Virus record (IMG/VR): IMGVR_UViG_3300020595_000002
Coordinates: 1 to 63,228 of that record
DNA length: 63,228 nucleotides
DNA from: a virus
Strand: one strand, 5' to 3'
Position numbers and translations under genes: made by a program
In this document: piece after piece, positions 3,913 to 63,228 of the stretch
Numbering within the stretch: position 1 is the first letter of the stretch
How the letters are laid out: the number at the start of each line of letters is the position of its first letter
The notes under the pieces: generated by a model
What the model saw: the letters and a program-made list of their open reading frames with translations, nothing else
What the model was told of the DNA's origin: nothing
Database searches by the model: none

Positions 3913-4764
3913 ATGGGAAATAACAACGGAAGAGCATTAACGCCAGTGGCAAAGCTAAAGAACGTCATGGCTTCTGAGTCAGTACAAGAGCAATTCAAAA
4001 ATGCGATGAACGAGAAGAAGGATCTTTTCATTGCCTCATTAATCGACCTTTACGCCAGCGATACCTACCTGCAGAACTGCGAACCAAACCAAGTGGTAAT
4101 GGAGGCGCTGAAAGCAGCCACCCTTAACCTGCCTATCAATAAATCGCTCGGATTCGCTTACATCGTACCGTACAAAAAGAGCGGCAAGCAAATTCCTCAA
4201 TTCCAGATGGGCTACAAAGGCATGATCCAACTTGCCATGAGAACCGGCCAGTATTCAGTGATTAACGCTGACGTGGTTTATGAAGGTGAGTACCAAGGCT
4301 TTGAAAAGCTGACCGGAAAACTTGATATATCCGGTGACAAAAAGAGCGATAAAGTTGTTGGTTATTTCGCTCACATTGAAACAGTCAACGGCTTCAAGAA
4401 AACCATGTACATGACTGTCGAGGACATGCAGAAACACGGCAAGAAGTACAGCAAGTCATATGACAAAGACTTTTCTCCATGGAAAACAGAGTTTGACGGC
4501 ATGGCAAAAAAGACCATGCTTCGGGCCCTGCTTGGAAAATACGGCATCATGACCGTGGAAATGGCAGATGGCCTAGCTAAAGACGAAAACGACAATGAAG
4601 CTGATTATACCAACTATGCCAACAGTGAAATCATTGACGTTGAGCCACCAAAAAACATTGACATGAAAACCGGAGAAGTAACCGACCCCGAAGACCAGCA
4701 GGAAGAGGAACCACCAGTACCACCAGAAACCAAGCAAGAAGAACTTCCGGGCTTCGCGCAATGA
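3913..4764 (+). CDS. recT: RecT-family single-strand annealing recombinase
   Basis: LNLPINKSLGFAYIVPY...QFQMGYKGMIQLAMRTGQY is a typical RecT core. Acidic C-terminal tail. Confidence 0.85.
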   Translation: MGNNNGRALTPVAKLKNVMASESVQEQFKNAMNEKKDLFIASLIDLYASDTYLQNCEPNQVVMEALKAATLNLPINKSLGFAYIVPYKKSGKQIPQFQMGYKGMIQLAMRTGQYSVINADVVYEGEYQGFEKLTGKLDISGDKKSDKVVGYFAHIETVNGFKKTMYMTVEDMQKHGKKYSKSYDKDFSPWKTEFDGMAKKTMLRALLGKYGIMTVEMADGLAKDENDNEADYTNYANSEIIDVEPPKNIDMKTGEVTDPEDQQEEEPPVPPETKQEELPGFAQ

Positions 4765-11373: not shown

Positions 11374-11397
11374 CGATAAATTAACAGGAGAGCGAAT

Positions 11398-11640
11398 ATG
11401 AAGATAAAGAATGGTGTCTGCTCTGGATGTGGCAAAAGAGCGTTTCTGTGTGATTGTGACGAGATCAGCGAGTCACCTCGAACGGTGGGTTATGTGCGCA
11501 TTTACGAAGATGGCCAACCGTGTAAACACCATGGATGTAAAAACCACATATCCCATCCATGTGAAGGTTGCGGAAGGACCGGAGCAAGAGGGGTTGTTGA
11601 TTTACCAAGACGTATTTACCAGAATTGGAAAAGCACATAA
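11398..11640 (+). CDS. Hypothetical zinc-ribbon-like protein
   Basis: CSGCG...CDCD...CKHHGC...CEGCG. Preceded by the conserved taacaggagagcgaatATG context also found at 17398. Confidence 0.6.
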   Translation: MKIKNGVCSGCGKRAFLCDCDEISESPRTVGYVRIYEDGQPCKHHGCKNHISHPCEGCGRTGARGVVDLPRRIYQNWKST

Positions 11641-11657
11641 CCACTTATTAACGAAAC

Positions 11658-11729
11658 AGTGAACCTGCCAGCCACGGACTAGGCCAGAACCACGATGTTG
11701 TTCTGGTCAGGTTACACGGCTGGTTATAC
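11658..11729 (+). repeat. Structured intergenic box, copy 1 (conserved flanks, variable inner hairpin)
   Basis: 5' AGTGAACCTGCCAGCCACGGACT and 3' GGTCAGGTTACACGGCTGGTTATAC are shared with 16218-16291. Inner stem GGCCAGAAC/GTTCTGGTC. Confidence 0.85.
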
Positions 11730-11753
11730 TCAAAATAAAAGGAGTGTGGGGTT

Positions 11754-11981
11754 ATGTTTGTAATGAAGGGAATGACAACAGAATTAATTAACAAATATGA
11801 TTGCTCAGTATGCAAAGAGATGGGAATTGAACACGAGGTGTTGAAGGATGTTCCAGGTCCACCGACTACAAAAAGTTCTTGCTGGGGCGAAGGGCTTCCC
11901 ACAACGAAAAGAAAATGCACTGGCTGTGGTTTTGAAGATGGCCCGTGGGTGAGTGCAAACCTAGTGGGCGGAGGTTGGTAA
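11754..11981 (+). CDS. Hypothetical small protein (cargo of cassette-like insertion 1)
   Basis: SD AAGGAG. 75 aa with CSVC and CTGC pairs. Confidence 0.55.
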   Translation: MFVMKGMTTELINKYDCSVCKEMGIEHEVLKDVPGPPTTKSSCWGEGLPTTKRKCTGCGFEDGPWVSANLVGGGW

Positions 11982-12043
11982 AACATAACAGGTGTATAAG
12001 CCCTGATAATAAACTTAATTAACCATTATAAAGGAAATGTTTT

Positions 12044-12451
12044 ATGATCAACAAAGCCATACTTATTGGAAATCTGGGAGCCGATCCCGAAATACGCTAT
12101 ACTCAGTCAGGAACCCAAGTAACAACCTTCAACGTTGCCACAACTGAGCGTTGGAAAGGGCAAGATGGCCAGATGCAGGAGTCAACTGAATGGCATCGAA
12201 TTGTTGCCTGGAAACGCCTTGCGGAGATTTGTGCAGAATATCTCAGTAAAGGCTCAAAGGTCTACATTGAGGGTGCTATAAAAACCCGTAAATGGCAAGA
12301 CCAGCAAGGAAACGACCGCTTCACCACAGAAATAATTGCTCGAGAAATGAAAATGCTCAGTCCTCGGAATGGTGAGAGTTCTTCTGGTGAAATGCCGGAG
12401 CCGCCGAGTGGTTATGGCACTGGTGGTATGGGTGAAGATGTGCCTTTTTAG
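12044..12451 (+). CDS. ssb: Single-stranded DNA-binding protein
   Basis: OB-fold signature [20 protein letters not shown]...TEWHRIV. Gly-rich tail ending in the acidic tip EDVPF. Confidence 0.95.
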
Positions 12452-12491
12452 CAATAAAACCAATAGTTTATTTTAAGGAGAACCAAAACAA

Positions 12492-13712
12492 GTGCCAGCC
12501 TATTACAATGAGTTCGACCCACAAAAAGCTGAGTGGCTGCGTGAACTCATGAAGCGTGATCTTATAGCGCCTGGTGATGTGGACGAAAGGAGTATAGATG
12601 ATATCGCACCAAATGAGCTTATGGGATACACCCAACATCACTTCTTCGCAGGAATTGGAGTCTGGAGCTACGCACTCAGAAAAGCAGGGTGGCCAGACGA
12701 AAGACCAGTCTGGACAGCTTCATGTCCTTGCCAACCTTTCTCATCGGCAGGCAAAGGAGATGGGTTTGACGACGAGCGGCACTTGTGGCCATCACTCTTC
12801 TGGCTTATCCAACAGCTTCGCCCTGTCCAAGTCTTTGGCGAGCAGGTTGCGAGTAAAGACGGACTTGCTTGGCTCGACCTTGTACAAAATGACCTGGAAA
12901 GTGAGGCGTACACCTGCGGGGCGGTCGATTCCTGCGCTGCGGGGTACGGTGCGCCGATGCTCAGACAGAGATTGTACTGGATGGCTTACCCCGAAAGCAT
13001 CGGACAGCAAATGTCCAGGGAAAAGTCGAGATATGCACTTGAATCACCAAGCAACAATATCAGGTTGGCCGACACCAAGTGCATCAAATGCGGAGAGGGC
13101 TGCGTTCAAGGATATATCAAAGCTAATGACGAGGAAAGAGAAAGGCCAGCAAGCAAATCTACAAGAGGATGTATCGTTGAGTGGTTGGCCGACACCGACT
13201 GCAAATCCAGCAAACGGAGAACCGGAAGCGTTTCTGGAGAGAAAGCGCAGGTCTGTGGAGAGAGGATCGAACATGGGAGTTGCCCTAACGGATATCCAAA
13301 TGGTTGCGAAGATAAGCGGTTGGCCAACACCAACAACCACAGATTCACTCAAGGGCGGAAAAGTCAGCCCACGACAGGGAATGATGGGGTTGAGCGAGAC
13401 AATGTCTCTTCTTCGAAAAAACCAGCAGCCTGCCCGACTAACGGCCACTGGAAAGATACTGACTGGCTCTTCTGCAGAGATGGGCTTTGGAGGCCAACTG
13501 AATCCATCGATAAGCCGTTGGATGATGAGCTTGCCAACAGATTGGGATATCGCAGCATTGGCGGTAGATACTCGCTTGATCCGCTCAAAGAAAAAGCAGA
13601 AAACCGAGTAATGAGGTTAAGAGGCTACGGAGATGCAATTGTCGCAGAACAGGCGATTGCTTTTATCGAGGCAGCTTTAGAAATAGAAAACATCCAAGGA
13701 GAACCAAAATGA
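12492..13712 (+). CDS. DNA (cytosine-5)-methyltransferase
   Basis: Motifs in order: FFAGIG (I), PCQPFS (IV), GEQV (VI), QRLYW (VIII), RLRGYGDAIV (X-like). GTG start with an AAGGAG SD. Confidence 0.85.
   Translation: MPAYYNEFDPQKAEWLRELMKRDLIAPGDVDERSIDDIAPNELMGYTQHHFFAGIGVWSYALRKAGWPDERPVWTASCPCQPFSSAGKGDGFDDERHLWPSLFWLIQQLRPVQVFGEQVASKDGLAWLDLVQNDLESEAYTCGAVDSCAAGYGAPMLRQRLYWMAYPESIGQQMSREKSRYALESPSNNIRLADTKCIKCGEGCVQGYIKANDEERERPASKSTRGCIVEWLADTDCKSSKRRTGSVSGEKAQVCGERIEHGSCPNGYPNGCEDKRLANTNNHRFTQGRKSQPTTGNDGVERDNVSSSKKPAACPTNGHWKDTDWLFCRDGLWRPTESIDKPLDDELANRLGYRSIGGRYSLDPLKEKAENRVMRLRGYGDAIVAEQAIAFIEAALEIENIQGEPK
12598..13611 (+). CDS. Embedded +1-frame ORF (337 codons) inside the C5-MTase gene; coding status unresolved
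   Basis: Open frame with GWLTP, three SGWPTP repeats (13063, 13183, 13318) and GGQLNPSISRWMMSLPTDWD (13489-13548). See findings. Confidence 0.35.
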   Translation: MISHQMSLWDTPNITSSQELESGATHSEKQGGQTKDQSGQLHVLANLSHRQAKEMGLTTSGTCGHHSSGLSNSFALSKSLASRLRVKTDLLGSTLYKMTWKVRRTPAGRSIPALRGTVRRCSDRDCTGWLTPKASDSKCPGKSRDMHLNHQATISGWPTPSASNAERAAFKDISKLMTRKEKGQQANLQEDVSLSGWPTPTANPANGEPEAFLERKRRSVERGSNMGVALTDIQMVAKISGWPTPTTTDSLKGGKVSPRQGMMGLSETMSLLRKNQQPARLTATGKILTGSSAEMGFGGQLNPSISRWMMSLPTDWDIAALAVDTRLIRSKKKQKTE

Positions 13713-14002
13713 TCCACGAATACCACAACACCACCAACCTGAAAGGCGATCAATTAAACCAAGCCAAAAAGAAAGCCATCTCACAAAACGAAAGAGTGCT
13801 CAATTTCTTCCAATCACATGCGCTCGAAGAGTTTACCCCTTGTGAAGTTCAAAAACGCGTAGGAGGGCTGATTACGTCAATTCGCAGGGCAATGTCCGTG
13901 TTGACTAAAAAAGGGCTACTGGAGAAGACAAAACATCAAAAAGAAGGTGTGTATGGAAGCCTTGCCTATACCTGGACCTTGAAGCAGCTGGGCGATAGTT
14001 AA
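13709..14002 (+). CDS. Putative winged-helix DNA-binding protein
   Basis: RVLNFFQSH...TPCEVQKRVGGLITSIRRAMSVLTKKGLLEK looks like a wHTH. Overlaps the MTase stop by 4 nt. Confidence 0.4.
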   Translation: MIHEYHNTTNLKGDQLNQAKKKAISQNERVLNFFQSHALEEFTPCEVQKRVGGLITSIRRAMSVLTKKGLLEKTKHQKEGVYGSLAYTWTLKQLGDS

Positions 14003-14227
14003 AAAATTTTGCCTTATACGCACAGCAAATTGTTGTATTATGATGTAAATTGAGGTAGCATTGTGTTATTCAAGGCTGGCTACCTTGTTAATAAAACGAC
14101 AAAGGAAAACAGAATGACGAAATTTAGAAGCTCTGCGAGGCAGCAACGCCACAGACAAGCAATACGGTCCCTTTGTCCCGTAGTCTGTGCTGCCTCTCAG
14201 GGCTTTTATTTTTTATGGGGTTAGCAA

Positions 14228-15067
14228 TTGAATACGGATATCCGCTTACAAATAAGTTTCAAGGAAAATAGAAAGCGAAAAAGGCTAAACCTGAAACTAG
14301 GCTCTGACGCTGTTCTCGCTTTGGTCGATCTATGGCTTGGCGTTGCCGTGAGCAGGCCATGCGGAAAACTTACCGGATGGGACGAGCTTGACATTGCTCT
14401 TGAGGCAAACTACCCAGGAGATCCAAAGGCTTTTGTTGACGCTCTGCTCGACGTTGGATTCTTGGATAAAGATGAGTCTGGAATATATTCAATGCACGAC
14501 TGGCAAGAGCATAACCCATATGCAGCCGGAAGTAAGGAACGATCCGACAAGGCAAGGTTCAGCAAGCTCAAGTCACATTATCCAAAACTATACGAAACGT
14601 TACATAAAAAAGGAAAACGTTCAATATCATCTAACGACTATCAACGAATCGTTAACGAATACTTAAACGAAAAAGAAGAAACCGTTAACGCCGCGTCTGC
14701 TCCATCTCCATCTCCATCTCCATCTCCATCTCCATCTCCATCTCCAAAAGATAAAAGGTTCAACCCTCTTTCTCTTCGTCCTGATTGGTTTCCTGAAGAA
14801 GATTTTAAAGACGTTGTTGAGCAGAGGAAAAAATCATCAAAGAAAACGTCTGAGACAGAAAGGGCGTATAAGTCTCTTATCAAAGAATTTAAAAAAGCGA
14901 TGGAGAAGGATTTTAGCATTAGCGAATGTGTGGACAAGATGACCAGAAGAGGATGGGTTGGCTTTGATTCTGATTGGATGACAGAAAACAACAATAATCC
15001 GGTAAACAATAAGCGAGGTGGATATGTCGAACCAAGCAGAGGCAAGGACTATCGTGAAGGGCTTTGA
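14228..15067 (+). CDS. Putative replication organizer/initiator with an (SP)7 linker
   Basis: TTG start. Immediately upstream of and overlapping the DnaC-like loader. Two domains joined by PSPSPSPSPSPSPSP. Confidence 0.45.
   Translation: MNTDIRLQISFKENRKRKRLNLKLGSDAVLALVDLWLGVAVSRPCGKLTGWDELDIALEANYPGDPKAFVDALLDVGFLDKDESGIYSMHDWQEHNPYAAGSKERSDKARFSKLKSHYPKLYETLHKKGKRSISSNDYQRIVNEYLNEKEETVNAASAPSPSPSPSPSPSPSPKDKRFNPLSLRPDWFPEEDFKDVVEQRKKSSKKTSETERAYKSLIKEFKKAMEKDFSISECVDKMTRRGWVGFDSDWMTENNNNPVNNKRGGYVEPSRGKDYREGL
14702..14746 (+). repeat. Hexanucleotide microsatellite CCA(TCTCCA)x7 encoding P(SP)7
   Basis: Seven perfect tctcca units, read directly. Confidence 0.95.
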
Positions 15068-15791
15068 AAGCGAAGATCCAAAAAAGAGAATTAACGCTGA
15101 CAAGATATGTGACATACATAACGAACAGTATCGGGAAATAAGTTTCGACAAATACGTTTGCCTTTCTTGCGCTTCAGCAGAGGAAGATAAAGAGAAACTA
15201 CAAAGAAGGGTCAGCCAAGCTGTCCAGTCTCTAAGCCTGCCAACAAAACTAGAAAGGTATTCTTTTGAGAATTACAAAGCCACAGGAAAAAGCACAGTTG
15301 TTCTCGATAAATGCAAGAAATACGTTCAATCGTGGCCAGACGTTGGTGGAATAATAATGCTTGGGGGGGTTGGAACAGGAAAAACTCACCTTGCCGTTTC
15401 CATATGCAAAGACCTTTGCGCTAAAGGGGTTGTTTCTCACTTCACAACGGCAAATAAAATTATCCGCAGTGTTAGAAGTTCATGGGGAAACAATAAGCCC
15501 ATTGATGGATGGGGAGAAGTCTTAACAGAGGAAAAAATAATAAACAGGTTCGTTGGTTATGACCTCTTGGTTATTGACGAGATAGGCACTCAGTACGGTT
15601 CGGAATCAGAACGAATAATCATTAACGAAATAATCAACGACAGGTATGAGATGGATAGGCAAACAGTTTTGATCGGCAATGTGTCTTTTGCTGAAGCAGA
15701 GAAGATACTTGGTTCAAGGGTGATAGATCGTGTCAAAGACAATGGAGAGATATTGTTTTTTGAATGGGACTCTTTCAGGCGGTCAAAATAA
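15024..15791 (+). CDS. DnaC/IstB-like AAA+ helicase loader
   Basis: Walker A GGVGTGKTH and Walker B LLVIDEIG. Start at ATG 15024 (SD GAGG) rather than GTG 15018. Confidence 0.85.
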   Translation: MSNQAEARTIVKGFESEDPKKRINADKICDIHNEQYREISFDKYVCLSCASAEEDKEKLQRRVSQAVQSLSLPTKLERYSFENYKATGKSTVVLDKCKKYVQSWPDVGGIIMLGGVGTGKTHLAVSICKDLCAKGVVSHFTTANKIIRSVRSSWGNNKPIDGWGEVLTEEKIINRFVGYDLLVIDEIGTQYGSESERIIINEIINDRYEMDRQTVLIGNVSFAEAEKILGSRVIDRVKDNGEILFFEWDSFRRSK

Positions 15792-15795
15792 TCCA

Positions 15796-16212
15796 ATGAA
15801 AAAAATAGGCATAGACCCAGGCACAAAAACCGGCCTCGCAATCTGGAACACAGCAACAAACGACTTCGACCTCATCACCACAACCACTATCGTCAAAGCC
15901 ATGGAGATAGTTGCAAACTCCACTGAACCAGATTCAGAGATCTACTTTGAAGATGCCAGAAAACGCACTTGGTTCGGCAAAAGACAGTCACCAGAGAAAG
16001 AAAGAGAGAAGCTACAGGGCGTTGGTTCGGTAAAAAGGGATTGCTCAGTGTGGGAAGAATTTTGCGAACATCTTGGTATCAAATATCACAGAGTTCATCC
16101 TCAGCAGATTAACACCAAGACTGATGCGGCTTATTTTAAACGGCTGACCGGATATAAGGGCAGGACTTCGGAGCATGCTCGTGATGCTGCTATGATTGTT
16201 TTTAAGCGATAA
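15796..16212 (+). CDS. RuvC-like Holliday junction resolvase
   Basis: N-terminal MKKIGIDPGTKTGLAIW (catalytic Asp motif of RNase H-fold resolvases). Start at ATG 15796, after the loader stop. Confidence 0.6.
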   Translation: MKKIGIDPGTKTGLAIWNTATNDFDLITTTTIVKAMEIVANSTEPDSEIYFEDARKRTWFGKRQSPEKEREKLQGVGSVKRDCSVWEEFCEHLGIKYHRVHPQQINTKTDAAYFKRLTGYKGRTSEHARDAAMIVFKR

Positions 16213-16217
16213 CGATT

Positions 16218-16291
16218 AGTGAACCTGCCAGCCACGGACTGACCACGAAGCGCAAAACTTCTTCGTGGTCAGGTTGCACGGCTGGTTATAC
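16218..16291 (+). repeat. Structured intergenic box, copy 2
   Basis: Same 23-nt 5' flank and 25-nt 3' flank (one A/G difference) as 11658-11729. The inner stem is GACCACGAAG/CTTCGTGGTC, a different sequence with the same pairing geometry. Confidence 0.85.
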
Positions 16292-16311
16292 CATAGATTA
16301 AGGTGAAACAT

Positions 16312-16569
16312 ATGATAGAAACACATCCTGTTCAAACCGAAGCAAACGGTAGAAGAGGCAGTGGAAAATCCCCAAAGGTTGTCACCATGAGGGCGTATGA
16401 GGTTTATTGCCACTTGCACAGTGAGCAAGAAGCAATGGTAACAGGAGGGTGTCGAGGAGGTTTCGGGACCGGAGAGCTAATAGCGTTCCTCTATGCACAT
16501 TCCTTCCCAAAAGAAGAATGGAAAGAAAGGGTTTTTGAAGCATTCAACGGAATGGAAAATATGGGTTAG
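16312..16569 (+). CDS. Hypothetical small protein (cargo of cassette-like insertion 2)
   Basis: SD AAGGTGA 5 nt before ATG 16312. The longest ORF starts at GTG 16303. Confidence 0.55.
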   Translation: MIETHPVQTEANGRRGSGKSPKVVTMRAYEVYCHLHSEQEAMVTGGCRGGFGTGELIAFLYAHSFPKEEWKERVFEAFNGMENMG

Positions 16570-16593
16570 GGGTATAACGGTTGAAATAAGCGC

Positions 16594-16620
16594 GCGGACG
16601 GGTTTTCCGTCCGCTTAATT
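16594..16620 (+). terminator. Possible weak terminator hairpin
   Basis: GCGGACGG-gtttt-CCGTCCGC followed by TTAATT. Confidence 0.3.
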
Positions 16621-16680
16621 GACTGGTTAGCTTTTGGCAGTAATTGGTCGCAAATGATATCAAGCATTTAGGAGATTTTT

Positions 16681-17389: not shown

Positions 17390-17414
17390 CGTTTAAATTA
17401 ACAGGTGAGCGAAT

Positions 17415-17678
17415 ATGAACATTGAACAAGAAGAAAATTTAACCCATGAAGAACAGGCTGAGTGGGAAAAACTCGCAGAGAAGAGCGAGTCCTCGTTGAA
17501 TGATGGGTTACCTGCCGAAGCCACCAGATGGCAAATAACGGATTGTAGAAAGTGCAAAAGCCATAACGGCTATTTAATAGAGGACGCAAGAGGGGATGCT
17601 GAATTTACCTGCCTTGACTGCGGTTTTTCGTGGTGGGTTGAATGGGTGTTATACAATAAATCAAAGGTGAAATTATGA
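17415..17678 (+). CDS. Hypothetical zinc-ribbon protein
   Basis: CRKC...CLDC. Conserved taacaggtgagcgaatATG initiation context. Confidence 0.6.
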   Translation: MNIEQEENLTHEEQAEWEKLAEKSESSLNDGLPAEATRWQITDCRKCKSHNGYLIEDARGDAEFTCLDCGFSWWVEWVLYNKSKVKL

Positions 17679-17953
17679 TAGATAGAAAGTTCAAAATATT
17701 AGCAATCAACCCATGCAAAGGAAAACATTACACAGAAGAAAATTCGATGCTTTTTTGTGCCAAGGACAAAGCTCTAGTGCCGACCCTTGAGGCATACCAC
17801 AACGAGTGTCTTAAATTGGGATGTGGATTAGAGCACCTTGAAAGTGTTGAGCTTTTGATAAGCAGAGTAAAGACATTCCAGAAAGATGAATGTCGCACAC
17901 CAGACACAGACACAGACTGTGAGATTGACCGCTGTATTGGTGGAAATGTATAA
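17675..17953 (+). CDS. Hypothetical protein
   Basis: 92-aa ORF with a 4-nt overlap with the upstream gene. Confidence 0.55.
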   Translation: MIDRKFKILAINPCKGKHYTEENSMLFCAKDKALVPTLEAYHNECLKLGCGLEHLESVELLISRVKTFQKDECRTPDTDTDCEIDRCIGGNV

Positions 17954-18038
17954 CGTGGAGATCACTGGCGTGCCCAGTGGTTGAATTAAAAACGACGTGC
18001 TTCTTCGCGTCCAGTGGATTTGCTTGTTAACTTCTTGA

Positions 18039-18288: not shown

Positions 18289-18522
18289 ATGGACAATTCA
18301 GAAGCAAGCAAGACGGGAAAACCGCTGAACTCCGCAAGTCCGATTGACCGCTTGGTTGGCCGACTTGACCCTTTCAGAGAGACACATTTTTCCAGGTTTA
18401 AACACAGCAGGTTCCGTTTCTGGCTTGGAACCAGAGAGTTGTGGGTGCAGATTTGGAAATATGCTTTTTGTATTCACTGGGGTGGAAGGGAAACCGGAAA
18501 GACATTTAAACTTGTCGGCTAA
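18289..18522 (+). CDS. Hypothetical protein
   Basis: SD GAGGA before the ATG. Competing overlapping ORFs (18344 +, 18298 -) were judged less likely. Confidence 0.45.
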   Translation: MDNSEASKTGKPLNSASPIDRLVGRLDPFRETHFSRFKHSRFRFWLGTRELWVQIWKYAFCIHWGGRETGKTFKLVG

Positions 18523-18596
18523 CGATGACTTGAGCGGCGTGGCTAGGGCGTGCCACGAAGAACCGCTATAATTCACGTCCGCTCAAAGGTGTGGTT

Positions 18597-18854
18597 ATGA
18601 AGCTCTATAAGTGCATTTGCGGTGACGACAAGGCCATATGTCCTGATTGTATGCAAGATTGGATTGAAATTGCAGAGGATAAGCTAAGCCAGATAGAAAC
18701 ATGGGTAAAAGCGTATCCATTGGCAGTCTTTCCGGAGCCAGATTTTACAAAGGCTGCAAGGGTGTTAAAAAACAACGGAATGACTCTTGATTCCATAAGC
18801 GCAAGTAACATGAGGCATGTGCTCAACGGAATAACCAGGATAATTTCTACATAA
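18597..18854 (+). CDS. Hypothetical Cys-containing protein
   Basis: SD AAGGTG 5 nt before ATG 18597. CICGDDKAICPDC. Confidence 0.55.
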   Translation: MKLYKCICGDDKAICPDCMQDWIEIAEDKLSQIETWVKAYPLAVFPEPDFTKAARVLKNNGMTLDSISASNMRHVLNGITRIIST

Positions 18855-18907
18855 CCACTTATTAACAGGTAAATTTGCCCTGATAATAGCTAAACCAATC
18901 ATTATCT

Positions 18908-19111: not shown

Positions 19112-19139
19112 TTGCATCTTGATGTATAAACTGTATAAT
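19112..19139 (+). promoter_or_regulatory. Strong sigma70-like promoter (candidate late promoter)
   Basis: TTGCAT (19112-19117), 16-nt spacer, TATAAT (19134-19139). Confidence 0.6.
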
Positions 19140-19190
19140 AGTACCTGATAGGTTTCCTTGTGTCCCTCCCTTAATCGGGAGACTGACCAA

Positions 19191-19240
19191 AGCCCCTATA
19201 TGCGATTCTTCCCCTGGATTCGCGTGTAGGGGCTTTTTTA
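19191..19240 (+). terminator. Intrinsic terminator between the promoter and terS
   Basis: AGCCCCTA/TAGGGGCT 8-bp stem enclosing a second imperfect hairpin, followed directly by TTTTTTATTT. Confidence 0.75.
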
Positions 19241-19252
19241 TTTGGGGATTTG

Positions 19253-31678: not shown

Positions 31679-33097
31679 ATGGGCCTATATGTAGATAAAC
31701 CGGCAGTTGAGCCTTTCGAGTGGGGAGAGAACGAAAGATTTGGAACGGGTGTTGACTCCGGCTCACTTTCCTATGTCAGCGCTAAATACACGCAGTCACT
31801 TGAGCTGGCAAACAGCATGATAGAAAAGCTCGTTGGGGTAGATGGCAACAGCGGATATCTTGGAGCTCTTGACAGTATAATTACCAGTTACCCCGCTCCA
31901 AATGTATCAGTTGAAGGTGTCACCGTACCGGATCTTGATATACCAGTTGATAGTCGTCCGGCTGTCGATACTTCAGGGCTTGAAACTTCATTTCCTGTTT
32001 TCGCCGCAACTCCACCCTCACTGCAAACTTTACCAACTGTCGATCTTTCAAGTCTCAACCCTGCAGATATTCCAGCTGAGATAAGCGCGGCTATTTCATG
32101 GGTAGAAAGCGAACACGTTCTTTCTCTTTATACTCCGCTCTTTAATCGTCTCATAGCCGACCTACAATCCGGTGCAACTGGCCTTGACTCGACCGTTGAG
32201 CAAGAGATTTACGATAGAGCTCTTGCCAGGCAGGTTATTGAAGACGATAAAGCACAGCAGCAGGTAGAGGATTATTTTACTACAAGGGGTTTTCCTCTTC
32301 CGACCGGAGCAATGGCCGGAAGACTGCAAGAACAAACTAACGAGCAAGCAAGAAGAACACTGGAGATCAACGGTAAGATCATGATAGAGCAGGCGCAGCT
32401 TGCTCAGAATAACAGCCAGTTTGCAATTCAGATGGCAAACAACCTTGAAGCTGTTTTGCGTGACTTTACTTCCAGGAAGAACGATAGAAGCCTTGATTAT
32501 TCAAAGGCAGTCGCAGCCAACGCTATCAGCGTTTACAGCGAAAGCATCAGGGCATACATAGCCGCAGCAGAAGCAAATAAAATCTATGTTCAAACTCAGG
32601 TTGAGAACTTAAGGGCAATTGTTGAGTACAACAAAGGGCTTGTCGATTCATATTCAGCAGAAGCAGAAGCCTTTAACGCAGTTATTAATGCCAAGGCCAA
32701 GAAAAACGAAGCCCTTATCGGTGCCATAGAAGCCGAGATAAAAGGGTACGACTCAGAGACGAAAGCTATTGCTGAGAGCCAGAAGACCAAAGCAGCGGCC
32801 TATGCCTTGCGACTTCAAAACGCCGACATGCAATTAAGGGAATCAATTGCCAACGCTGAACAGTCAACAAATGGATATACCTCTGAATCCGCATTGCGTG
32901 AAAAAGTATCTGAGGCTATGGCAAACATTGCTATGCAGGCTGTAGCATCAGCTCTTGGTAGTGTTAATGCCAGTGCTGGTATTTCTAATAGTGCTAGCGA
33001 ATCAATTAGCGAGAGTTGGGGCCACTCTGAAAGCAGAAGTGTTGGGACCAGCCATAGCGGAAACATTAGCGAATCGCACAGTTATAGCGAGTCATGA
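31679..33097 (+). CDS. Virion structural protein, coiled-coil rich
   Basis: 472 aa. Ser-rich low-complexity C-terminus. Confidence 0.5.
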   Translation: MGLYVDKPAVEPFEWGENERFGTGVDSGSLSYVSAKYTQSLELANSMIEKLVGVDGNSGYLGALDSIITSYPAPNVSVEGVTVPDLDIPVDSRPAVDTSGLETSFPVFAATPPSLQTLPTVDLSSLNPADIPAEISAAISWVESEHVLSLYTPLFNRLIADLQSGATGLDSTVEQEIYDRALARQVIEDDKAQQQVEDYFTTRGFPLPTGAMAGRLQEQTNEQARRTLEINGKIMIEQAQLAQNNSQFAIQMANNLEAVLRDFTSRKNDRSLDYSKAVAANAISVYSESIRAYIAAAEANKIYVQTQVENLRAIVEYNKGLVDSYSAEAEAFNAVINAKAKKNEALIGAIEAEIKGYDSETKAIAESQKTKAAAYALRLQNADMQLRESIANAEQSTNGYTSESALREKVSEAMANIAMQAVASALGSVNASAGISNSASESISESWGHSESRSVGTSHSGNISESHSYSES

Positions 33098-37870: not shown

Positions 37871-38431
37871 AGAAAACAACAATATGTATTTTTAATGTTG
37901 TAATCGTTTGGCTGGAGCGTCCTTTGATGGGTTAAAATCCTTTTCAACGACTGAAAGAGACACGTTGAAAGGCCGAGTGATCGGCACTATCTAGCCAGAT
38001 CTTCATAACCGCTTTACGGCTCTGCTCGTCTCTTCGAGCGTTTTGGATCGGGTTTTCAGTGACATTTCCCGTTCCTTGTCGCACCTCCCAGGGGCGGAGC
38101 TAGTTAGCTTTTCTTTTCAGGGGAATCAATGGAAGCAACAGTCTCAAAAAATATCTTGACATCTCTTAACAATTCGGGCTACCATTACCTTGCAACGGCA
38201 AAATCCGTTGTCGGGATTAGCAGCCCGAACCTATCAGGCGGACACACCGCCTTATTTACTGGCGGTTTTTTTGTGTCCGATAATCATGACGTTGCTCTGT
38301 TTGGCGAGTCATGTGGGGAGTCTTCGGACTCGCCGGTTCCTGGTAGCCGGTCTGCTAACCCGCATGGTTCGCCTTTTCTGTTTAGCAGCAGAGAAGGTGA
38401 AAACATTTCATCTTTTACCAGGAGCAAGATC
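37871..38431 (+). ncRNA. Long hairpin-dense untranslated leader or embedded regulatory RNA upstream of the antirepressor
   Basis: About 560 nt with no credible CDS. Hairpins: TTCAACG/CGTTGAA (37943-37969), GCCGA-GTGA-TCGGC (37972-37985), alternative GGCGG/CCGCC/GGCGG+T7 (38237-38272), GAGTC-TTCG-GACTC (38318-38331), CTGCTAA/TTAGCAG (38352-38388). Confidence 0.4.
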
Positions 38432-44609: not shown

Positions 44610-47600
44610 ATGGATTATAGCCACGTAGACCTTGATTCTGTCTTTGATGGAATAGATACCGAAAACAATACATCATCTCCCAAGCCTCAGAAGAAACCTG
44701 TACAACAAAAAGTAGACTATAGCGGTGTAAATCTTGATTCTGTCTTTGACGATGTTCTGGGACCGCAGAAAGAAACTTCCTCTCCTGCTTCTCCTTCTGT
44801 CCAGCGACAAGAGCAGCCTGTCTCTCGAAATGTTGATTACAGCAATGTAGACCTGGACTCGGTTTTTGATGATGTGCTTAGTGGTGGATCAAGTACCGAA
44901 AGGGTTTCTCATGACCGTAATCTTCTAAGCGATATCGGCAGTCATGCACTTCGAGGCGGAGCTAAAGCAGTTGAGCAGATTGGCCGGGGGATGCAGGTTG
45001 TTGATGGCGATTACAGCGACGACGAAGGTTTTCTTGATACAACCGGCAAGAAACTTCAGGAGTTTGGCGAGAACGCACCAAAGAAATTTGATTATCTCAA
45101 GCCCGATGCAGCCGAAGGGACCGACAAAGAATCATGGTTCAAGCAAAAGGCCATGGAAGGTGTTGAATCGCTCGGACCTTCAGCCGTTCCCTTTGTTGCC
45201 GCAGCAGGGACAGGAGCCGCAGTTGCAGCAGCCGGAGCTAGCGCACCTATCACCGCACTTGTTGCAGGAGGAAGTGGTCTTGCCGCTCTTCTTGGAACCT
45301 TTGGCGCAGGTACATACCACGAAAAGAGACAGGAATATGATGGTGTCCCAGGTCTTACCGAAGATCAAAAGCACGTTGCCGCTTTAAAACAGGCTGGTAT
45401 TGAATCTGGCGGTGAGCTCGTCAGTGATATTATCCTCATGGGAATTGGCAAACTTGTCCCGGGTGCAGGAAAAGCGGTTTCTGATGTGGCAAAGAATGGA
45501 ATCAAAACCCTTCTTTCCATGTCTCCAAAGCAGTTGGCAAAGCAAGCAGGAAAGGTTTATCTCGCAGAATGGGGAACAGAAACAGGGCAAGCCTATCTTC
45601 AGTCCGGTATCGATGCCGACCTTGGAGTAGGTGAGCGAATGACTATGCTCGAAGCGGCAATTGAAACAGCAATACCCACGGCTGTAATGACCCTTGCCCT
45701 TGGATCAGCGACAGGCGCCTATAACGTTCGTCAAAAGCAAAAACTTTTTAATCAGCTCAACAGCGAAAATGAAGAGATGCGGATTGCCGCAGCGAATAAC
45801 GTATATGGCACCTTAAAGAAGCAGGACAATGAAGTAGCTGAAGCATGGCGTTCTTTCTCTTCAGAAGCTATCTCCAATGGAAGCCCAATAGATGTAAAAG
45901 CTGATTTTCTTAGCAATCCAACCGGAGAGCAAAAGCCGGACGGAACTGTTTCTAAAGCCGTTGACTCTTCTCTTAAATCTCAACCTGGCACAATCTCCAA
46001 AGCCATACCAAACCAAGACCTCTCAGCAGTTGACCGGATGGAGAACGATCTTGCAAGCCAACCCGACAACGACCTCATTTCTTCAATGATAGATGGTGAA
46101 GTTGACATCCAGGACCAGGCAGACGCGAGGAGCAGAAAGAATAAGTTTGCCGACCTCATGAAGAATTATGAGCAGTTTCAGGCAAACAAGACCGACAAGA
46201 AAACCGCCAAGGAATCAGCAGAAGTTTTTCAAGCCAATCCAGAACAGAGAAATCAGGAATACGAGCAGAAAGAAAAAGACCTTAACGAAACCTTCAGAGC
46301 ATACTTTGCCGAACAGGAAAGACAGGCTGAAGAGAATAAGGCCAAACTCCAAGGCGGTAATATTACCGAGCAAGAAGCCAAAGACTTTGAGGACCGCGTA
46401 AATAAAGAACGTCAGCAATGGGCTAAAAAGAATCGCTCAAAGGCCGCTCAGCGAAAGATTGAAAAGGCCAGTACCGAAGTTGAGCAGGAAGAAGATAGCG
46501 CAGAAGAAAGCCTTTCTTCCGTTCCTTTTGAGGTAATGGCGCAGGCGAAGAAAGAAGCTGAAAATACAGTTCGTGAAGATCCGCGTTATCAAGAGATGGC
46601 AGAGGCCAGAAAGCGAAACGGCATAAACATCTATGACGCAAAGAGTTTCTTTTCTCATACCACAATTGCCGCGCTCAATAAAAAATATCCAGGGCTTTTT
46701 CAAGGTGGACAACTGGCCGTTCAAGGTGATGCTCTTCGAGTAGATGAATATGCTCAGGAGAAAGGTTACACATCCGCTGACGAGATGATAAACAACTGGC
46801 TTTCTGCACCATCGATAAAAGCTGAAACGGCGAGGATTGCCAAAGAGAACGTTGCTGAATGGGAACGGTATGAAAACCTTCAGAAAGAAGATGAAAAAGC
46901 GGCCTCAGCTACAACAACCCAGGAGAAAGGGAACACTGTTGCGCCAGGGCCGCAGCAAACCACTTTACCAGAAGTTGAGAAGATTACCAATAAACAATCG
47001 ATTGCTCATGGCCAGGAAGTAGCTACAAACCCAACCGATGCACAGAAGGAAGCGGAAAACTACAAAACAGCCAAAGTCAATGTCGATGGCCTAAAGATCT
47101 CCGTCGAGAATCCTGCAGGTTCAACCAGATCAGGAACAGACCCAAGCGGTAAAGAATGGTCTGTGAAGATGAAAAACGACTATGGCAGAATCCTTGGTTC
47201 AAATGGCTACGACAAAGACCATGTAGATATCTTTGTTTCACCTGGCTACAAAGGCGGAACCAAATACGCCTATGTCGTTAATCAGCATAATAAAGACGGT
47301 TCATTTGATGAGCATAAAACTGTTGTTGGCGTAAGCAGTGAGCAGGAAGCACTCGACCTCTATAACTCCAATTATAAAAAAGGCTGGACAGGTGGCAAGT
47401 CCGTTACCCGTCTACCAATGGCGGCTTTCAAGAAATGGGTAGGCGGGACCGGACCGGCAAAGGGAGAATTGCGCCGGAGCCGGACCGTCGATTTTCAGCA
47501 GGAGAGAAGCAATGATATTCCTCAATCGTCTGGAAATACGGTGGCTAAAACCGAGAATAGGACACCTGTTGCTGATGAAAGAAGCAATACAGCAATCGGA

Positions 47601-61713: not shown

Positions 61714-62943
61714 TTAACCGTTTTTTATCTTAACAACCTTATCCGGTAACGAAACTTCCTTCTCCATGGCATCCACAGCCTGCTGCATGGCATTACGAAC
61801 AGGTGAGAGAGTAAGGTGGATATAATGAGCTGTAGCATCCCTTGACTTATGTCCAAGTGCTTTACCTATAATGTCACCGCTGATACCAGAAATAGCTTGC
61901 CAGCTGCCTTGAGTCCTTCTTAGATCGTGTAATCTGTAATCTGTTGGTAGACCGGCGTTTTTTAAGAAAGATTTCCATGCCCTTTTTGGTTCGACAATAT
62001 GACCTGTTTTGCTCTTCTCGGAAGGGAAAACAAAAACCGACTTAGTTCTCTTCTTTCTCTTCTCAAGTATCTCTACGGCACCGTCAATCAAAGGAATTAC
62101 CAACTCTTCCTGATCGTTCTCGCTTTTAACCTCTGGAATTATCCAAAATTTGAGAGAAAGGTCAACGTCCTTCCACTGCATAGAAAGCACGTTTGCTCTT
62201 CTTGCGCCGGTATATAAAAAGATTAAGAGCATGTCTTTTAAGTATTCCGGCGTTTTTTTGTTATCAAGAGTTTTGAAGAAAGCTCGAAGGTGGTCGGATC
62301 TCAAGAAAACCTTTCTTTTCTTTTCGTGGTACTTTGGAATATCCTTACACGGGTTTGGTAGGTCGCTGGCGAATCGGTTGTACATACTTCTGACAATACC
62401 AAAGGCTCTATTAACTGTCGTCTTTGATATGCAATCTCCGCTATTCTTGCCCCTAATCTTCTTCTGGTCAAGAACCTTACGCCGCCATGCCTTGATATCC
62501 GACTCTTTTATGGCAGATATTTTCTTTTTCCCGAGATACTTCTTAATATAAAGATTGTATTTGCTCTCATCTTCCTTCCAGGTTTTCTTATTCTCCTTGG
62601 CATATTCCAGCCACTTTTCAAAAAGCCTATCAAGGGTGAGCTCTAAGTTTGTCTCAGTCAGCCCTCTTTTGATGTCCTTTCCTGCGGCAATTTGCTGTAC
62701 ATGCTCTCTGGCAATATCTCTTGCCGTATTGATACCTATTTTCGGATATCGGCCAATGGTGACAACCACAGGCTTTTTCCTAGAGGCATCCCAAGCATTT
62801 AATCGAAAGCTGATTGTGTTATTTGTGGTAAGGCAGATCTGCAAACCATAGCAAATAGAATCATAGAAATAGATTTTCTTGCCGGTCTGGTTCGTTAATT
62901 TTCTGAGTTTTGAATCGGTAAAATTGAACTTGTTTTCTGACAT
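61714..62943 (-). CDS. int: Tyrosine integrase, P4-type (DUF4102 arm-binding N-domain)
   Basis: N-terminal LRKLTNQTGKKIYFYDS...GRYPKIGINTARDIARE. Catalytic HDLRRT ... GHKSRDATAHYIH. Confidence 0.95.
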   Translation of the reverse strand: MSENKFNFTDSKLRKLTNQTGKKIYFYDSICYGLQICLTTNNTISFRLNAWDASRKKPVVVTIGRYPKIGINTARDIAREHVQQIAAGKDIKRGLTETNLELTLDRLFEKWLEYAKENKKTWKEDESKYNLYIKKYLGKKKISAIKESDIKAWRRKVLDQKKIRGKNSGDCISKTTVNRAFGIVRSMYNRFASDLPNPCKDIPKYHEKKRKVFLRSDHLRAFFKTLDNKKTPEYLKDMLLIFLYTGARRANVLSMQWKDVDLSLKFWIIPEVKSENDQEELVIPLIDGAVEILEKRKKRTKSVFVFPSEKSKTGHIVEPKRAWKSFLKNAGLPTDYRLHDLRRTQGSWQAISGISGDIIGKALGHKSRDATAHYIHLTLSPVRNAMQQAVDAMEKEVSLPDKVVKIKNG

Positions 62944-63101: not shown

Positions 63102-63161
63102 ACATAGCCCCACGGCCTTCTAAGCCGTAGGTCACAGGTTCGAATCCTGTCTGGCGTACCA
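63102..63161 (+). tRNA. Partial tRNA-Arg(UCU) 3' segment; candidate attP core next to the integrase
   Basis: Same fold as 1-60. The upstream sequence (63076-63101) has no ACGCCAG-type 5' acceptor strand and no D-stem partner, so it is not a complete tRNA gene. Confidence 0.65.
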
Positions 63162-63228
63162 ATAAATATAGGTGGTTAAGTCGTTAAGGCTTAATCGCTT
63201 TTTTGTTTGGATATATGCCGGATATATG
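63102..63228. repeat. Terminal direct repeat, second copy of 1-127
   Basis: Identical 127 nt to the window start. Confidence 0.95.

Follow-up and report, generated by a model that had tools for sequence, protein, structure and literature searches.

attC-like folded sites between the small early genes of an uncultured marine temperate phage

The early region of an uncultured marine temperate phage of about 63 kb (IMG/VR record IMGVR_UViG_3300020595_000002, whose 63,228 nucleotides form the window analysed here) carries five folded sites that separate its small genes. In our judgement there is an even chance that the structured box previously noticed there is one member of a strand-specific family of folded sites built on the plan of integron attC sites, that the region is CALIN-like, and that the sites once were, or still are, recombination sites. 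A CALIN is a cluster of attC sites lacking an integrase, for which IntegronFinder requires two or more attC sites on the same strand, within 4 kb of each other, and no integron integrase in the vicinity. Since five attC-like sites separate the genes at 11.6-18.6 kb, the region is organised like a CALIN, and we describe it as a CALIN-like attC-type array with unusual polarity, a label that depends on accepting the sites as attC. The observations behind this reading are the geometry of the sites, their enrichment, their recurrence as arrays in other phages, the edges of the units they bound and a contiguous form of the target; from these we infer a present or past role of the sites as recombination sites in single-stranded form, for a recombinase, integron-type or other, that is supplied in trans. 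The five sites are:

11646..11729, + strand: attC-like site 1 (box 1), TATTAAC / gaaaca / GTGAACCTG ...40 nt... CAGGTT(A)CAC / ggctg / GTTATAC
16207..16291, + strand: attC-like site 2 (box 2), CGATAAC / gatta / GTGAACCTG ...42 nt... CAGGTT(G)CAC / ggctg / GTTATAC
16572..16632, + strand: attC-like site 3, 61 nt, GTATAAC / ggttga / AATAAGCG ... CGCTTA(A)TT / gactg / GTTAGCT
17948..18032, + strand: attC-like site 4, GTATAAC / gtggag / ATCACTGG ... CCAGTG(G)AT / ttgctt / GTTAACT, with the ORF92 stop codon in GTATAAC
18517..18600, + strand: attC-like site 5, GGCTAAC / gatgac / TTGAGCGGCGTG ... CACG(T)CCGCTCAA / aggtgtg / GTTATGA

These share a common layout of NNNTAAC, 4-7 unpaired nucleotides, an 8-12-bp stem with one bulge, a variable top, a further 4-7 unpaired nucleotides and GTTANNN. 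The outer heptamers (the R box, NNNTAAC ... GTTANNN) pair over at least 4 bp in all five sites and match RYYYAAC/GTTRRRY at 5-6 of 7 positions. The spacers between the R and L boxes, 4-7 nt per arm, differ between arms by at most 1-2 nt, and the L box stem has a single bulged base per site, mostly G and on the same arm each time. Variable tops of 19-42 nt give total lengths of 61-85 nt, to be set against the integron attC test criteria of a 20-100-nt variable terminal structure and a total of about 57-141 nt. Sites 2-5 are co-oriented and spaced by 364, 1376 and 569 nt, while site 1 lies 4.56 kb from site 2, an interval enclosing essential replication genes. Site 3 contains a GC-rich hairpin that a simple scan scored as terminator-like on the - strand.

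Both boxes, with the repeats around them, lie where the original prediction put them (some junctions being 1-4 nt off) and exceed chance. Box arms occur in the window only at 11659-11680/11705-11729 and 16219-16240/16267-16291 (0 expected), and no third copy turns up when the window is searched with a covariance model built on the box. The arms of the two boxes are identical and their apical stems differ by three compensatory pairs. The minimum-energy RNA fold of the boxes, however, does not leave the 3' spacer free: its GGCTG is paired there with a CAGCC from the top part. An H-type pseudoknot formed from the box's two interleaved inverted repeats was rejected because the loop lengths exclude it; these are alternative helices, one of them the attC-like L box.

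Several sites overlap the genes that they separate. The stop codon of ORF80 (TAA, 11638-11640) falls in the repeat that leads into box 1, and that of a RuvC-like resolvase gene (TAA, 16210-16212) inside site 2. The GGCTAAC of site 5 holds the stop of a 77-aa ORF (18289-18522) and its GTTATGA the ATG of an 85-aa ORF (18597-18854). In all nine parsed sites of the window and related loci it is the 3' arm, read on the gene-sense strand, that carries the bulge, a polarity not required by the descriptor used below; the same holds for 10 of 12 sites elsewhere whose sense strand is assigned by an ORF end. Such attachment of structure to the sense strand is what would be expected of an element that works only in the transcript, and thus favours the main rival reading, in which the sites act as RNA. 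They would then be intercistronic hairpins in a long rightward early transcript, serving as processing signals, 3'-end stabilisers, binding sites for translational regulators, or a means of bringing stop (UAAC) and start (GUUAUG) together for coupled translation, and the flanking repeats would be by-products of duplicating useful regulatory modules. We regard this as somewhat unlikely. It agrees with the better folding of the + strand at the boxes (z of -3.8 and -4.6, versus -1.5 and -3.7 on the - strand), a difference due to G-U pairs; with the position of the sites in an otherwise tightly packed operon, whose few large intergenic gaps they fill; and with the frequent presence of the upstream stop codon in the site and, once, of the downstream ATG, whose Shine-Dalgarno sequence is in the unpaired spacer. 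No T-run is found 3' of the sites, so they are not simple terminators. Processing by RNase III in the early operon of phage T7 takes place at irregular hairpins between early genes, and five structured sites in an early region of about 7 kb recall that arrangement.

Acting as RNA, however, leaves the AAC/GTT triplets, the 5-nt spacers and the mostly-G bulge, all attC hallmarks, unexplained, and a basal helix of 4-5 bp falls short of a classical RNase III lower stem. Rfam returned no match at the gathering score, and at E<=10 only meaningless miRNA-like matches (E 0.5-5). Nor did the genome offer a complementary partner: a search for a trans-acting antisense RNA turned up no stretch of 11 nt or more complementary to the box arms (a single 11-nt match involves the variable loop of box 2), and the genome's isrK-like and C4-like RNAs show none to the box. 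Should the sites nevertheless act in RNA, they would make up a new family of elements between cistrons, similar to attC in geometry and a source of false attC calls in phages.

Enrichment of the geometry was measured with a descriptor consisting of AAC...GTT with 4-bp R pairing, near-symmetric 4-7-nt spacers, a stem of at least 8 bp and at most one bulge. It finds 6 loci in the window, compared with 0.7 in Markov shuffles, though it was built with the boxes and site 3 already known, and sites 4 and 5 emerged only once it was fixed. Other loci, 3.28 Mb in all, contain 22.6 per Mb, a background that predicts 1.4 loci in the window and 0.16 in the 7 kb (11.6-18.6 kb) that hold the five sites. When TAAC/GTTA is required, the window retains 5 sites, or 79 per Mb, versus a background of 9.2 per Mb. 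Similar arrays occur in four other phage contigs (L092, L225, L236 and L307). In L092, RecT and a RuvC-like gene enclose four 57-58-nt sites with cassette-like spacing, reading GCCTAAC...GTTAGGC and so matching RYYYAAC/GTTRRRY exactly; there are four sites in the phage L225, whose portal is of the P22 type, and three in L236, each directly 3' of an ORF stop. The arrays of L092, L225 and L236 have no sequence similarity to one another, and no tyrosine recombinase was found among the larger ORFs scanned in these three contigs. L225 and L236 came to light through a TIR pattern scan of IMG/VR that was itself at chance level.

The flanking repeats include a conserved post-stop element of 41 nt, present in three states:

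11635..11652, + strand: left arm of the 41-nt element, ACATAACCACTTATTAAC, followed by box 1 in place of the core
11983..12011, + strand: short form of the element, ACATAAC/AGGT gtataa GCCCTGATAATA
18849..18888, + strand: canonical contiguous element (the 'empty site'), ACATAAC CACTT ATTAACAGG taaatttgc CCTGATAATA

The 18-mer ACATAACCACTTATTAAC occurs exactly twice (11635-11652 and 18849-18866), with 0.08 occurrences expected even allowing 3 mismatches and none of 100 shuffles reaching two; AGGT-N6-GCCCTGATAATA likewise occurs at 11990-12011 and 18867-18888 (0.33 expected). The empty site that had been proposed at 18850-18892 is a real and conserved element, but it starts at 18849 and extends over 18849-18888. 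The split copy at 11635 is as originally described: box 1 and a 75-aa ORF (11754-11981) sit between the two halves, and AGGT-N6-GCCCTGATAATA resumes at 11990. Beyond this phage, the 41-nt element is contiguous in three other uncultured phages, L179 (twice), L301 and L307, which makes the arrangement at 11.6 kb the odd one out. Element-pattern matches in L303, L180 and L178, which are RNA-virus-like or unrelated contigs, were treated as chance.

Conservation of the unsplit intergenic sequence in other phages favours the view that 11653-11989 is an interrupting element. That part of the insertion claim finds support, but the reading is not unique: in the short form the core inverted repeat, ATAACAGG-N9-CCTGATAA, is whole, and what is missing is the 11-nt stretch that separates the two TAACs in the canonical form, so that another possible reading of 11983-12011 is a complete short copy of the element with an 11-nt slippage deletion between those TAACs. 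Moreover, the empty site and the split copy are paralogous, not orthologous, and have different flanking genes.

The genes concerned, together with two further repeats and two recombination genes, are:

11754..11981, + strand: ORF75, with an AGGAG Shine-Dalgarno sequence, encoding a Cys-rich, zinc-ribbon-like protein
16312..16569, + strand: ORF85, one of a small-protein family of wide distribution (215 cluster representatives at E<=1e-3)
11377..11405, + strand: copy 1 of a stop/RBS/ATG repeat, TAAATTAACAGGAGAGCGAATATGAAGAT, 93% identical to 17394-17422
17394..17422, + strand: copy 2 of that repeat, 29 nt
17648..17682, + strand: GTTATAC, RBS and ATGATAGA, a copy of 16285-16319
3913..4764, + strand: RecT-family single-strand annealing recombinase (PF03837), given as context only because it could recombine short repeats
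61714..62943, - strand: the only tyrosine recombinase found, an arm-binding phage integrase adjoining a tRNA-derived attP (1-57)

ORF75 is a real gene, with homologues 60-76% identical in three other contexts, all without the box. The second unit, 16214-16578, has the grammar claimed for it (GATAAC, box, Shine-Dalgarno sequence with ORF85, and GGGGTATAAC), and the GTTATAC at 16285-16291 is indeed the exact reverse complement of the GTATAAC at 16572-16578. Because 17648..17682 copies 16285-16319, ORF92 (17675-17953) is bracketed by GTTATACA ... TGTATAAC in the manner of ORF85.

On the attC-type reading, units 1 (11653-11989) and 2 (16214-16578) would be cassettes with their edges in the AAC/GTT triplets, unit 1 having presumably been inserted at G/TT of the conserved 41-nt element. 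Removal of a unit would leave the junctions CACTTATTAAC/AGGTGTATAAGCCC (unit 1) and TTAAGCGATAAC/GGTTGAAATAAGCG (unit 2), and the predicted circles would close at GGTAAAACATAAC/GAAACAGTGAACC and GGGGTATAAC/GATTAGTGAACC, respectively. For unit 2, the cassette start TTATAC and the heptamer GTATAAC are complementary at 7/7 positions, counting G, and the heptamer of the flanking site is inverse-core-like. The genes lie on the strand that matches the attC bottom strand; if these are cassettes, they belong to a mirror-polarity class and are not loot from ordinary bacterial integrons.

Another way to view the repeats is as linkers used by no site-specific system at all, with RecT, or illegitimate recombination at TAAC microhomologies, having swapped small genes at the 18-mer, the 41-nt element, the RBS repeats and the 23-26-nt box arms, by a logic like that of T4-type PeSL shuffling or of lambdoid boundary sequences. 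The phage encodes RecT, the minimal efficient pairing segment of Red-beta-type proteins is 23-27 nt (PMC3945230), which is the length of a box arm, and PeSL cassettes are likewise without a dedicated recombinase (PMC2839356). Homology breaks exactly at stop and start codons, and the small ORFs of the region are mutually non-paralogous, so the boundary sequences have spread independently of the genes; on the same ground tandem gene duplication was discarded as an origin for the repeats. The genome has many repeated translation-initiation regions, and the one at 11377..11405 is also found upstream of an ORF75 homologue in L125/L126. Against this, linker recombination does not explain one precise geometry and bulge polarity at five unrelated junctions, or the mutually dissimilar arrays of L092, L225 and L236; most of the repeats (18, 22 and 29 nt) do not exceed the length that efficient pairing needs, and boxes that flank the replication module as direct repeats would be a liability under pure homologous recombination. 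We think this account quite improbable.

The junction TAAC/AGG, put forward as a recurrent signal, does recur, but at 11385/6, 17402/3, 18866/7 and 11989/90, only the last being as first given. Two of the four (11382, 17399) belong to the separate 29-nt repeat that spans a stop codon, ribosome-binding site and ATG, and the TAACAGG 7-mer is not enriched genome-wide (9 versus 6.25 expected). It is largely a TAA stop followed by the AGG of a Shine-Dalgarno sequence, as would be expected if the whole pattern were ordinary, made up of chance hairpins and of reused good ribosome-binding sites and TAA stop contexts. In keeping with this, 8-9-nt inverted repeats around single ORFs are in only slight excess (5 versus 1.97 expected), and the GC and GC3 of the unit ORFs equal those of their neighbours, for which reason a foreign composition of the units was rejected. 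The enrichment of the repeats and descriptor sites, the 9/9 bulge polarity and the conservation of the 41-nt element in other phages nevertheless make so ordinary an origin very improbable indeed.

Modular cassette shuffling, as originally proposed, finds no support in the phage population. About 25 contigs of this phage from about 15 metagenome samples are all collinear, with no insertion or deletion polymorphism of the units and no empty or alternative unit. The phage is present in SRR7058355, SRR7058377, the runs behind ERZ807182/ERZ807185, ERZ27295531 and ERZ23491064, the SOLA22-1 series and JGI 3300020182. No close relative exists in which polymorphism could be sought: the best large-terminase match is 70% identical and adjoins a different early region, and the best Rep match, at 64%, also has different neighbours. 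Near and distant BLAST searches of isolate phages and E. coli genomes returned methyltransferase similarity only, and the covariance model R1 gave no match in any of four sets: 80 loci with RuvC-like homologues, the relatives by large terminase, the one by Rep, and the loci carrying the 41-nt element. Nor was the box seen beside other cargo ORFs. Exact and gapped patterns of its arms gave only chance matches, vetted by eye and with R1, in IMG/VR, GTDB genomes and JGI metagenomes, the last an incomplete collection for this purpose as its scan missed the phage's own JGI contigs. Therefore, no reservoir integron with this attC type is visible.

In line with the original remark that no dedicated recombinase is evident, we found no intI, attI or Pc of a complete integron, and the sole tyrosine recombinase has Arm-DNA-bind_3, SAM_3 and Phage_integrase domains (Pfam), a layout other than that expected of an integron integrase. 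We count the lack of IntI, the reversed polarity, the single bulge, the collinear contigs and the 4.56-kb gap between sites 1 and 2 as evidence against cassettes. As regards form the cassette-like reading is apt, but a sign of movement and an integron integrase were not found in this phage, and in its population the sites behave as fixed relics.

Other functions of the repeats were rejected individually. By inspection, sigma-70, extended -10, sigma-54 and sigma-28 promoter readings of AGGT-N6-GCCCTGATAATA misfit in spacing or key bases. No TTAWCAGG half-sites in the manner of a CI/Cro operator are present in the immunity region, and N4-type hairpin promoters were discarded as the 3310-aa product belongs to the polyvalent proteins and is no virion RNA polymerase.

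Several arrays within a few Mb of uncultured phage contigs, all with polarity reversed, suggest that such arrays are commoner in environmental phages and mechanistically distinct. It is conceivable, though in our view unlikely, that uncultured temperate phages with a P22-type portal, RecT and RuvC/RusA run an early-region cassette system of their own, with a mirror attC-like site after each small gene, no resident IntI and landing sites such as TTAACAGG-N9-CCTGATAA. Such a system might be serviced by a host integrase acting on the other strand, by a phage recombination or resolution enzyme, or by RNA-level machinery. If the sites described here are recombination sites at all, part of the mosaicism of phage accessory regions would be structure-specific cassette exchange instead of random or homology-driven recombination, and phages would share, or run parallel to, the bacterial integron cassette economy.

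The promoter-early stem-loop (PeSL) cassettes of T4-type phages (Arbiol et al. 2010, PMC2839356; Comeau et al. 2014, PMC4122927), to which the units had been compared, contain a strong sigma-70 promoter, with an AT-rich region upstream of it, and a terminating stem-loop, and their shuffling was demonstrated by indels between 96%-identical phages and by mini-circles; their authors themselves likened them to integrons. The present units resemble them in pairing a conserved intergenic stem-loop motif with a small ORF of unknown function, in a plastic early region, with no dedicated recombinase. The comparison nevertheless fails on the promoter: the box has no promoter-like site, none being found at 11640-11753, 16213-16311 or 18849-18907, and promoter-like matches in the region do not exceed those in shuffles. 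Stable hairpins are present but lack a T-run, site 3 alone being scored as terminator-like, on the - strand.

The RNase III sites of T7 are similar: several irregular hairpins, each with an internal loop and some 60-80 nt long, lie on the transcribed strand between early genes and resemble one another in structure rather more than in sequence, but the basal helix of the phage sites is only 4-5 bp and their conserved AAC/GTT has no counterpart there. Elements of the IS200/IS605 group carry strand-specific hairpins recognised as single-stranded DNA and insert 3' of a fixed tetranucleotide (TTAC for IS608). Strand-specific hairpins are shared with these and with REP/PATE hairpin elements, and TTAC insertion resembles the TAAC edges, whereas the phage units have one hairpin each instead of left and right end hairpins, and an unrelated small ORF as cargo. 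There is no hairpin at the right ends of the units, no HUH Y1 transposase domain (IS200/IS605, REP/RAYT) in neighbouring ORFs, and no TnpA, TnpB or RAYT.

The closest resemblance is to integron attC sites, and the comparison made originally is apt: the box and three further intergenic hairpins have attC geometry, with unit edges at TAAC/GTTA. An aadA-type attC parses to the same 7-5-stem...stem-6-7 layout, with the bulge on the 5' arm. Relative to the gene, the extrahelical base of the phage sites is on the opposite arm, so that their sense strand resembles an attC bottom strand. The defining features of attC used here are those of PMC5027507 and PMC4889954. Classical sites have two or three extrahelical bases (PMC5027507), whereas each phage site shows one; attI and Pc are missing here, and the essential replication module occupies one 4.56-kb interval. 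A 2023 study described CALINs in phage genomes, with attC sites that IntI1 recombines (Qi et al. 2023, PMC9892861), and only 17 were reported among 10,705 isolate genomes (PMC9892861). Like them, the present sites form arrays at 0.3-1.4-kb spacing, with stop codons within the 5' heptamer and no integrase nearby. Like integron attC sites, they are imperfect 57-88-nt hairpins 3' of ORFs, with TAAC...GTTA outer pairing that includes the AAC/GTT triplets, unpaired spacers of about 5 nt on either arm, one base (mostly G) protruding from the inner stem, and a top that varies, conserved in structure and not in sequence.

Direct checking found in the window all of the sequences quoted in the original prediction, although some positions shift by 1-4 nt. 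The 18-mer at 11635-11652, which is the left arm of a 41-nt element, occurs twice against 0.08 copies expected with 3 mismatches permitted, the AGGT-N6-GCCCTGATAATA block twice against 0.33, and the arms of the structured box twice against 0; a covariance model detected no third box in the window. Boxes 1 and 2, which open unit 1 (11653-11989, with ORF75) and unit 2 (16214-16578, with ORF85), match at 22/22 and 24/25 nt of their arms, an extrahelical base being the only difference between the 3' arms. The apical stem-loops differ in sequence and length, yet both pair perfectly, with 3 double (compensatory) changes. No Rfam family matched the boxes. Their two interleaved inverted repeats can be parsed as an integron attC layout, reading TATTAAC/CGATAAC, 5-6 unpaired nt, GTGAACCTG ... 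CAGGTT(R)CAC, GGCTG and GTTATAC, with counterparts of the R box, the unpaired spacers, the L box with 1 extrahelical base and the variable top.

We scanned for this layout with a descriptor (AAC...GTT and a further, fourth R pair; 4-7-nt spacers whose lengths differ by no more than 1 nt; a stem of 8 bp or longer containing no more than 1 bulge; span 47-145 nt). It matched 6 window loci, whereas Markov shuffles gave 0.7. Other fetched sequence (3.28 Mb) showed a background rate of 22.6 per Mb, which predicts 1.4 matches for the window and 0.16 for the 7-kb stretch containing five; with TAAC/GTTA made obligatory, the densities were 79 per Mb in the window and 9.2 per Mb in the background. The five sites are:

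11646-11729, attC-like site 1 (box 1)
16207-16291, attC-like site 2 (box 2)
16572-16632, attC-like site 3
17948-18032, attC-like site 4
18517-18600, attC-like site 5

Sites 4 and 5 were output of the scan and played no part in designing the descriptor. Large intergenic gaps are few, and each site occupies one; the upstream stop codon lies inside the TAAC heptamer in 3/5, and at site 5 the GTTATGA heptamer includes the ATG of the next gene. The sixth match (31843-31916, TGGCAAC...GTTGAAG) falls inside coding sequence of the structural region and carries its bulge on the opposite arm; this hairpin probably arose by chance.

Judged from sequence, there is an even chance that these sites form an attC-type array resembling a CALIN (a cluster of attC sites lacking an integrase), whose units would be cassettes or cassette relics, unit 1 having been inserted at G|TT inside the 41-nt element. 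The unit edges first proposed coincide, on either strand, with the TAAC/GTTA of attC-like sites. If unit 2 were a circular cassette, the sequence closing its R box (G + TTATAC) would pair with GTATAAC at 7/7 positions, against 5/7 for the heptamer now present; for unit 1 the same comparison gives 5/7 against 4/7. ATAACG(A/G)TT flanks unit 2 (16209 and 16574; 9/11 positions matching), and inverted repeats of 8-9 nt, of the GTTAT../..ATAAC type, bracket four small ORFs (75, 85, 92 and the 85-aa ORF at 18597), inverted repeats of at least 8 nt around genes numbering 5 against 1.97 expected.

Unit 1 had been read as a 337-bp insertion into a repeated sequence with an 'empty site', which our check places at 18849-18888. 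The whole of that sequence, A-N-ATAAC(C/T)A(C/T)T(G/T)ATTAACAGG-N7-GCCCTGATAA, is contiguous in three other phage contigs recovered by an IMG/VR pattern scan:

L179, two copies, flanking a NinB/HNH/RusA/DnaD/DnaC/methyltransferase block
L301, one copy
L307, one copy, immediately 5' of a RusA-like gene

The second L179 copy lies just 5' of a TTGACC-N17-TATAAT promoter and the small-terminase gene. The core of the element, an imperfect inverted repeat TTAACAGG-N9-CCTGATAA, directly follows the left arm in 4/4 copies outside the window. The copy at 18849 thus represents the canonical form, and the exception is the junction of left arm and box 1 at 11635. Insertion is a good interpretation, though an alternative exists: deleting the 11 nt between two TAACs of the canonical form would also yield the copy at 11983-12011, whose core is complete. 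Two contigs encoding RNA-dependent RNA polymerase-like proteins (GDD motif), L180 (3131-3155, minus strand) and L303, contain TTAACAGG-N7-GCCCTGATAAT, and L180 has 14 nt in common with the window's stop/RBS repeat; these matches are probably chance.

Evidence of unit movement was sought in about 25 contigs from about 15 samples, carrying ORF75, SSB, ORF80, ORF72, ORF85 or the resolvase, and none was found: every contig is collinear with the window (identity 99.5% or more), and the presence/absence polymorphism anticipated for the units did not appear, with no indel of unit size. Nor did the box turn up beside other cargo ORFs, searches for its sequence in IMG/VR, in a JGI metagenome scan and in GTDB genomes having found none. 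Homologues of ORF75 elsewhere form just three clusters (60-76% identity), which occur in different gene contexts and lack the box; in one of them (L125) the gene is preceded by TAACAGGTTGAGCGATG, the initiation region that in the window stands 5' of ORF80 and ORF87. The small-protein family that includes ORF85 is widespread. Independent metagenome contig ends cluster at 16240-16258 in the loop of box 2 (5 ends, 4 assemblies) and at 11989-12015 in the short 41-nt element (4 ends, 2 assemblies), and one JGI contig covers exactly 11996-16253, which could reflect hairpin-related coverage loss or population heterogeneity. Three short contigs of the SOLA22-1 time series (L335 1-30, L337 1-32, L342 1534-1778) agree perfectly with the window up to a sharp break, the break points being 16615/16616 (just 3' of the site-3 hairpin), 16509/16510 (within ORF85, in frame) and 16869 (within ORF72). 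Such contigs are mosaic variants or else assembly chimeras.

Of the recurrent TAAC|AGG junctions, 2/4 fall in a separate 29-nt repeat covering stop codon, RBS and ATG, and TAACAGG itself is not enriched. Exact 14-nt repeats of RBS regions also occur before unrelated genes (AAGGAGAACCAAAA at 12475 and 13696; AGGAATAACCATGG at 6137 and 6533); initiation regions are reused throughout the genome. Shuffling through RecT and linker sequences, as with the promoter-early stem-loop (PeSL) cassettes of T4-type phages, is improbable as an account of the units, leaving unexplained a geometry common to unrelated sequences. Neither box has a promoter-like site, which excludes membership of the PeSL family itself, nor is there a T-run 3' of either.

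The main rival to an attC-type array is that the same structures act as RNA in the early transcript, which we consider less likely, though more probable than RecT shuffling. The structures are strictly linked to the sense strand, as an RNA role would have it, whereas the AAC/GTT hallmarks do not favour one. The bulged base lies on the 3' arm of the gene-sense strand at 9/9 sites (five in the window, one each in contigs L179 and L130, two in L307), and 10/12 sites elsewhere agree, at loci whose sense strand is assigned by ORF end. Folding of the boxes is significantly better than shuffles on the plus strand (z -3.8 and -4.6) and less consistent on the minus strand (z -1.5 and -3.7).

The genome around the array is that of a temperate phage. 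Positions 1-127 and 63102-63228 are identical (127/127 nt), a pattern that indicates circular assembly (k=127) and puts the genome at about 63.1 kb (about 63,101 bp); identical contigs of 63.1-63.2 kb are present in marine metagenomes. Its integration locus comprises:

1-57, 3' part of a tRNA gene, adjoining the integrase gene
61714-62943, minus strand, tyrosine integrase with arm-binding domain

Together these mark an attP that targets a tRNA gene, which could help in finding the host; TGGATATATGCCGGATATATG at 107, 62955 and 63208, beside the integrase gene, may represent arm-type sites. The long rightward early region encodes an SbcC-like ATPase, RecT, methyltransferases, SSB, an O-like initiator, a DnaC-like loader, a RuvC-like resolvase and many small ORFs, and terminase, P22-type portal and structural genes are also present. 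Nothing similar was found among isolate phages and E. coli genomes; the nearest large terminase, at 70% identity, adjoins a different early region. Just 5' of the small-terminase gene, 19112-19250 carries TTGCAT-N16-TATAAT and then a strong T-run hairpin (AGCCCCTA...TAGGGGCTTTTTTATTT), a layout like the lambda PR'/tR' late promoter-terminator pair that by analogy suggests Q-type antitermination. The 225-nt gap 5' of the replication initiator gene (14002-14228) holds a promoter-like sequence, a long T-run hairpin and a 36-codon ORF (14114-14224) whose N-terminus, MTKFRSSARQQRHRQAIRS, is similar to the arginine-rich motif of N-type antiterminators, and within the O-like initiator gene eight tandem CTCCAT hexamers (14700-14746), coding (SP)n, may be a linker or origin repeats. 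At 38192-38379 an isrK-like Hfq-binding RNA adjoins a C4-type antisense RNA, both exceeding their Rfam gathering scores; together they make up an antirepressor control module of the P1/P7 type, here in a marine phage. A 'polyvalent' protein of 3310 aa (44610-54542) has pyrophosphatase (InPase), methyltransferase and LPD38 domains.

An aadA-type attC, in what we take to be its sequence, parses to the same geometry, but its bulge falls on the sense strand's 5' arm; the phage sites are thus attC-like but mirrored relative to their genes. On recombinogenic attC bottom strands, extrahelical bases lie on the arm opposite the AAC (PMC5027507). Arrays with cassette-like spacing also occur in early regions of IMG/VR phage contigs that had been retrieved for unrelated purposes, with 2-4 attC-like sites each:

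L092, 2462-4710
L225, 1102-2909
L236, 194-1262
L083, 2718-3041

The L092 array, between RecT and a RuvC-like gene, has four sites of 57-58 nt (GCCTAAC...GTTAGGC and variants) spaced 388-1399 nt apart, in agreement with the classical consensus GCCTAAC/GTTAGGC. L225, a phage with an SNF2/methyltransferase protein, terminase and P22-type portal, has four, each immediately 3' of an ORF stop; L236 has three and L307 two. The larger ORFs scanned in L092, L225 and L236 included no tyrosine recombinase. CALINs with attC sites recombined by IntI1 were described in phage genomes in 2023 (17 among 10,705 genomes; PMC9892861).
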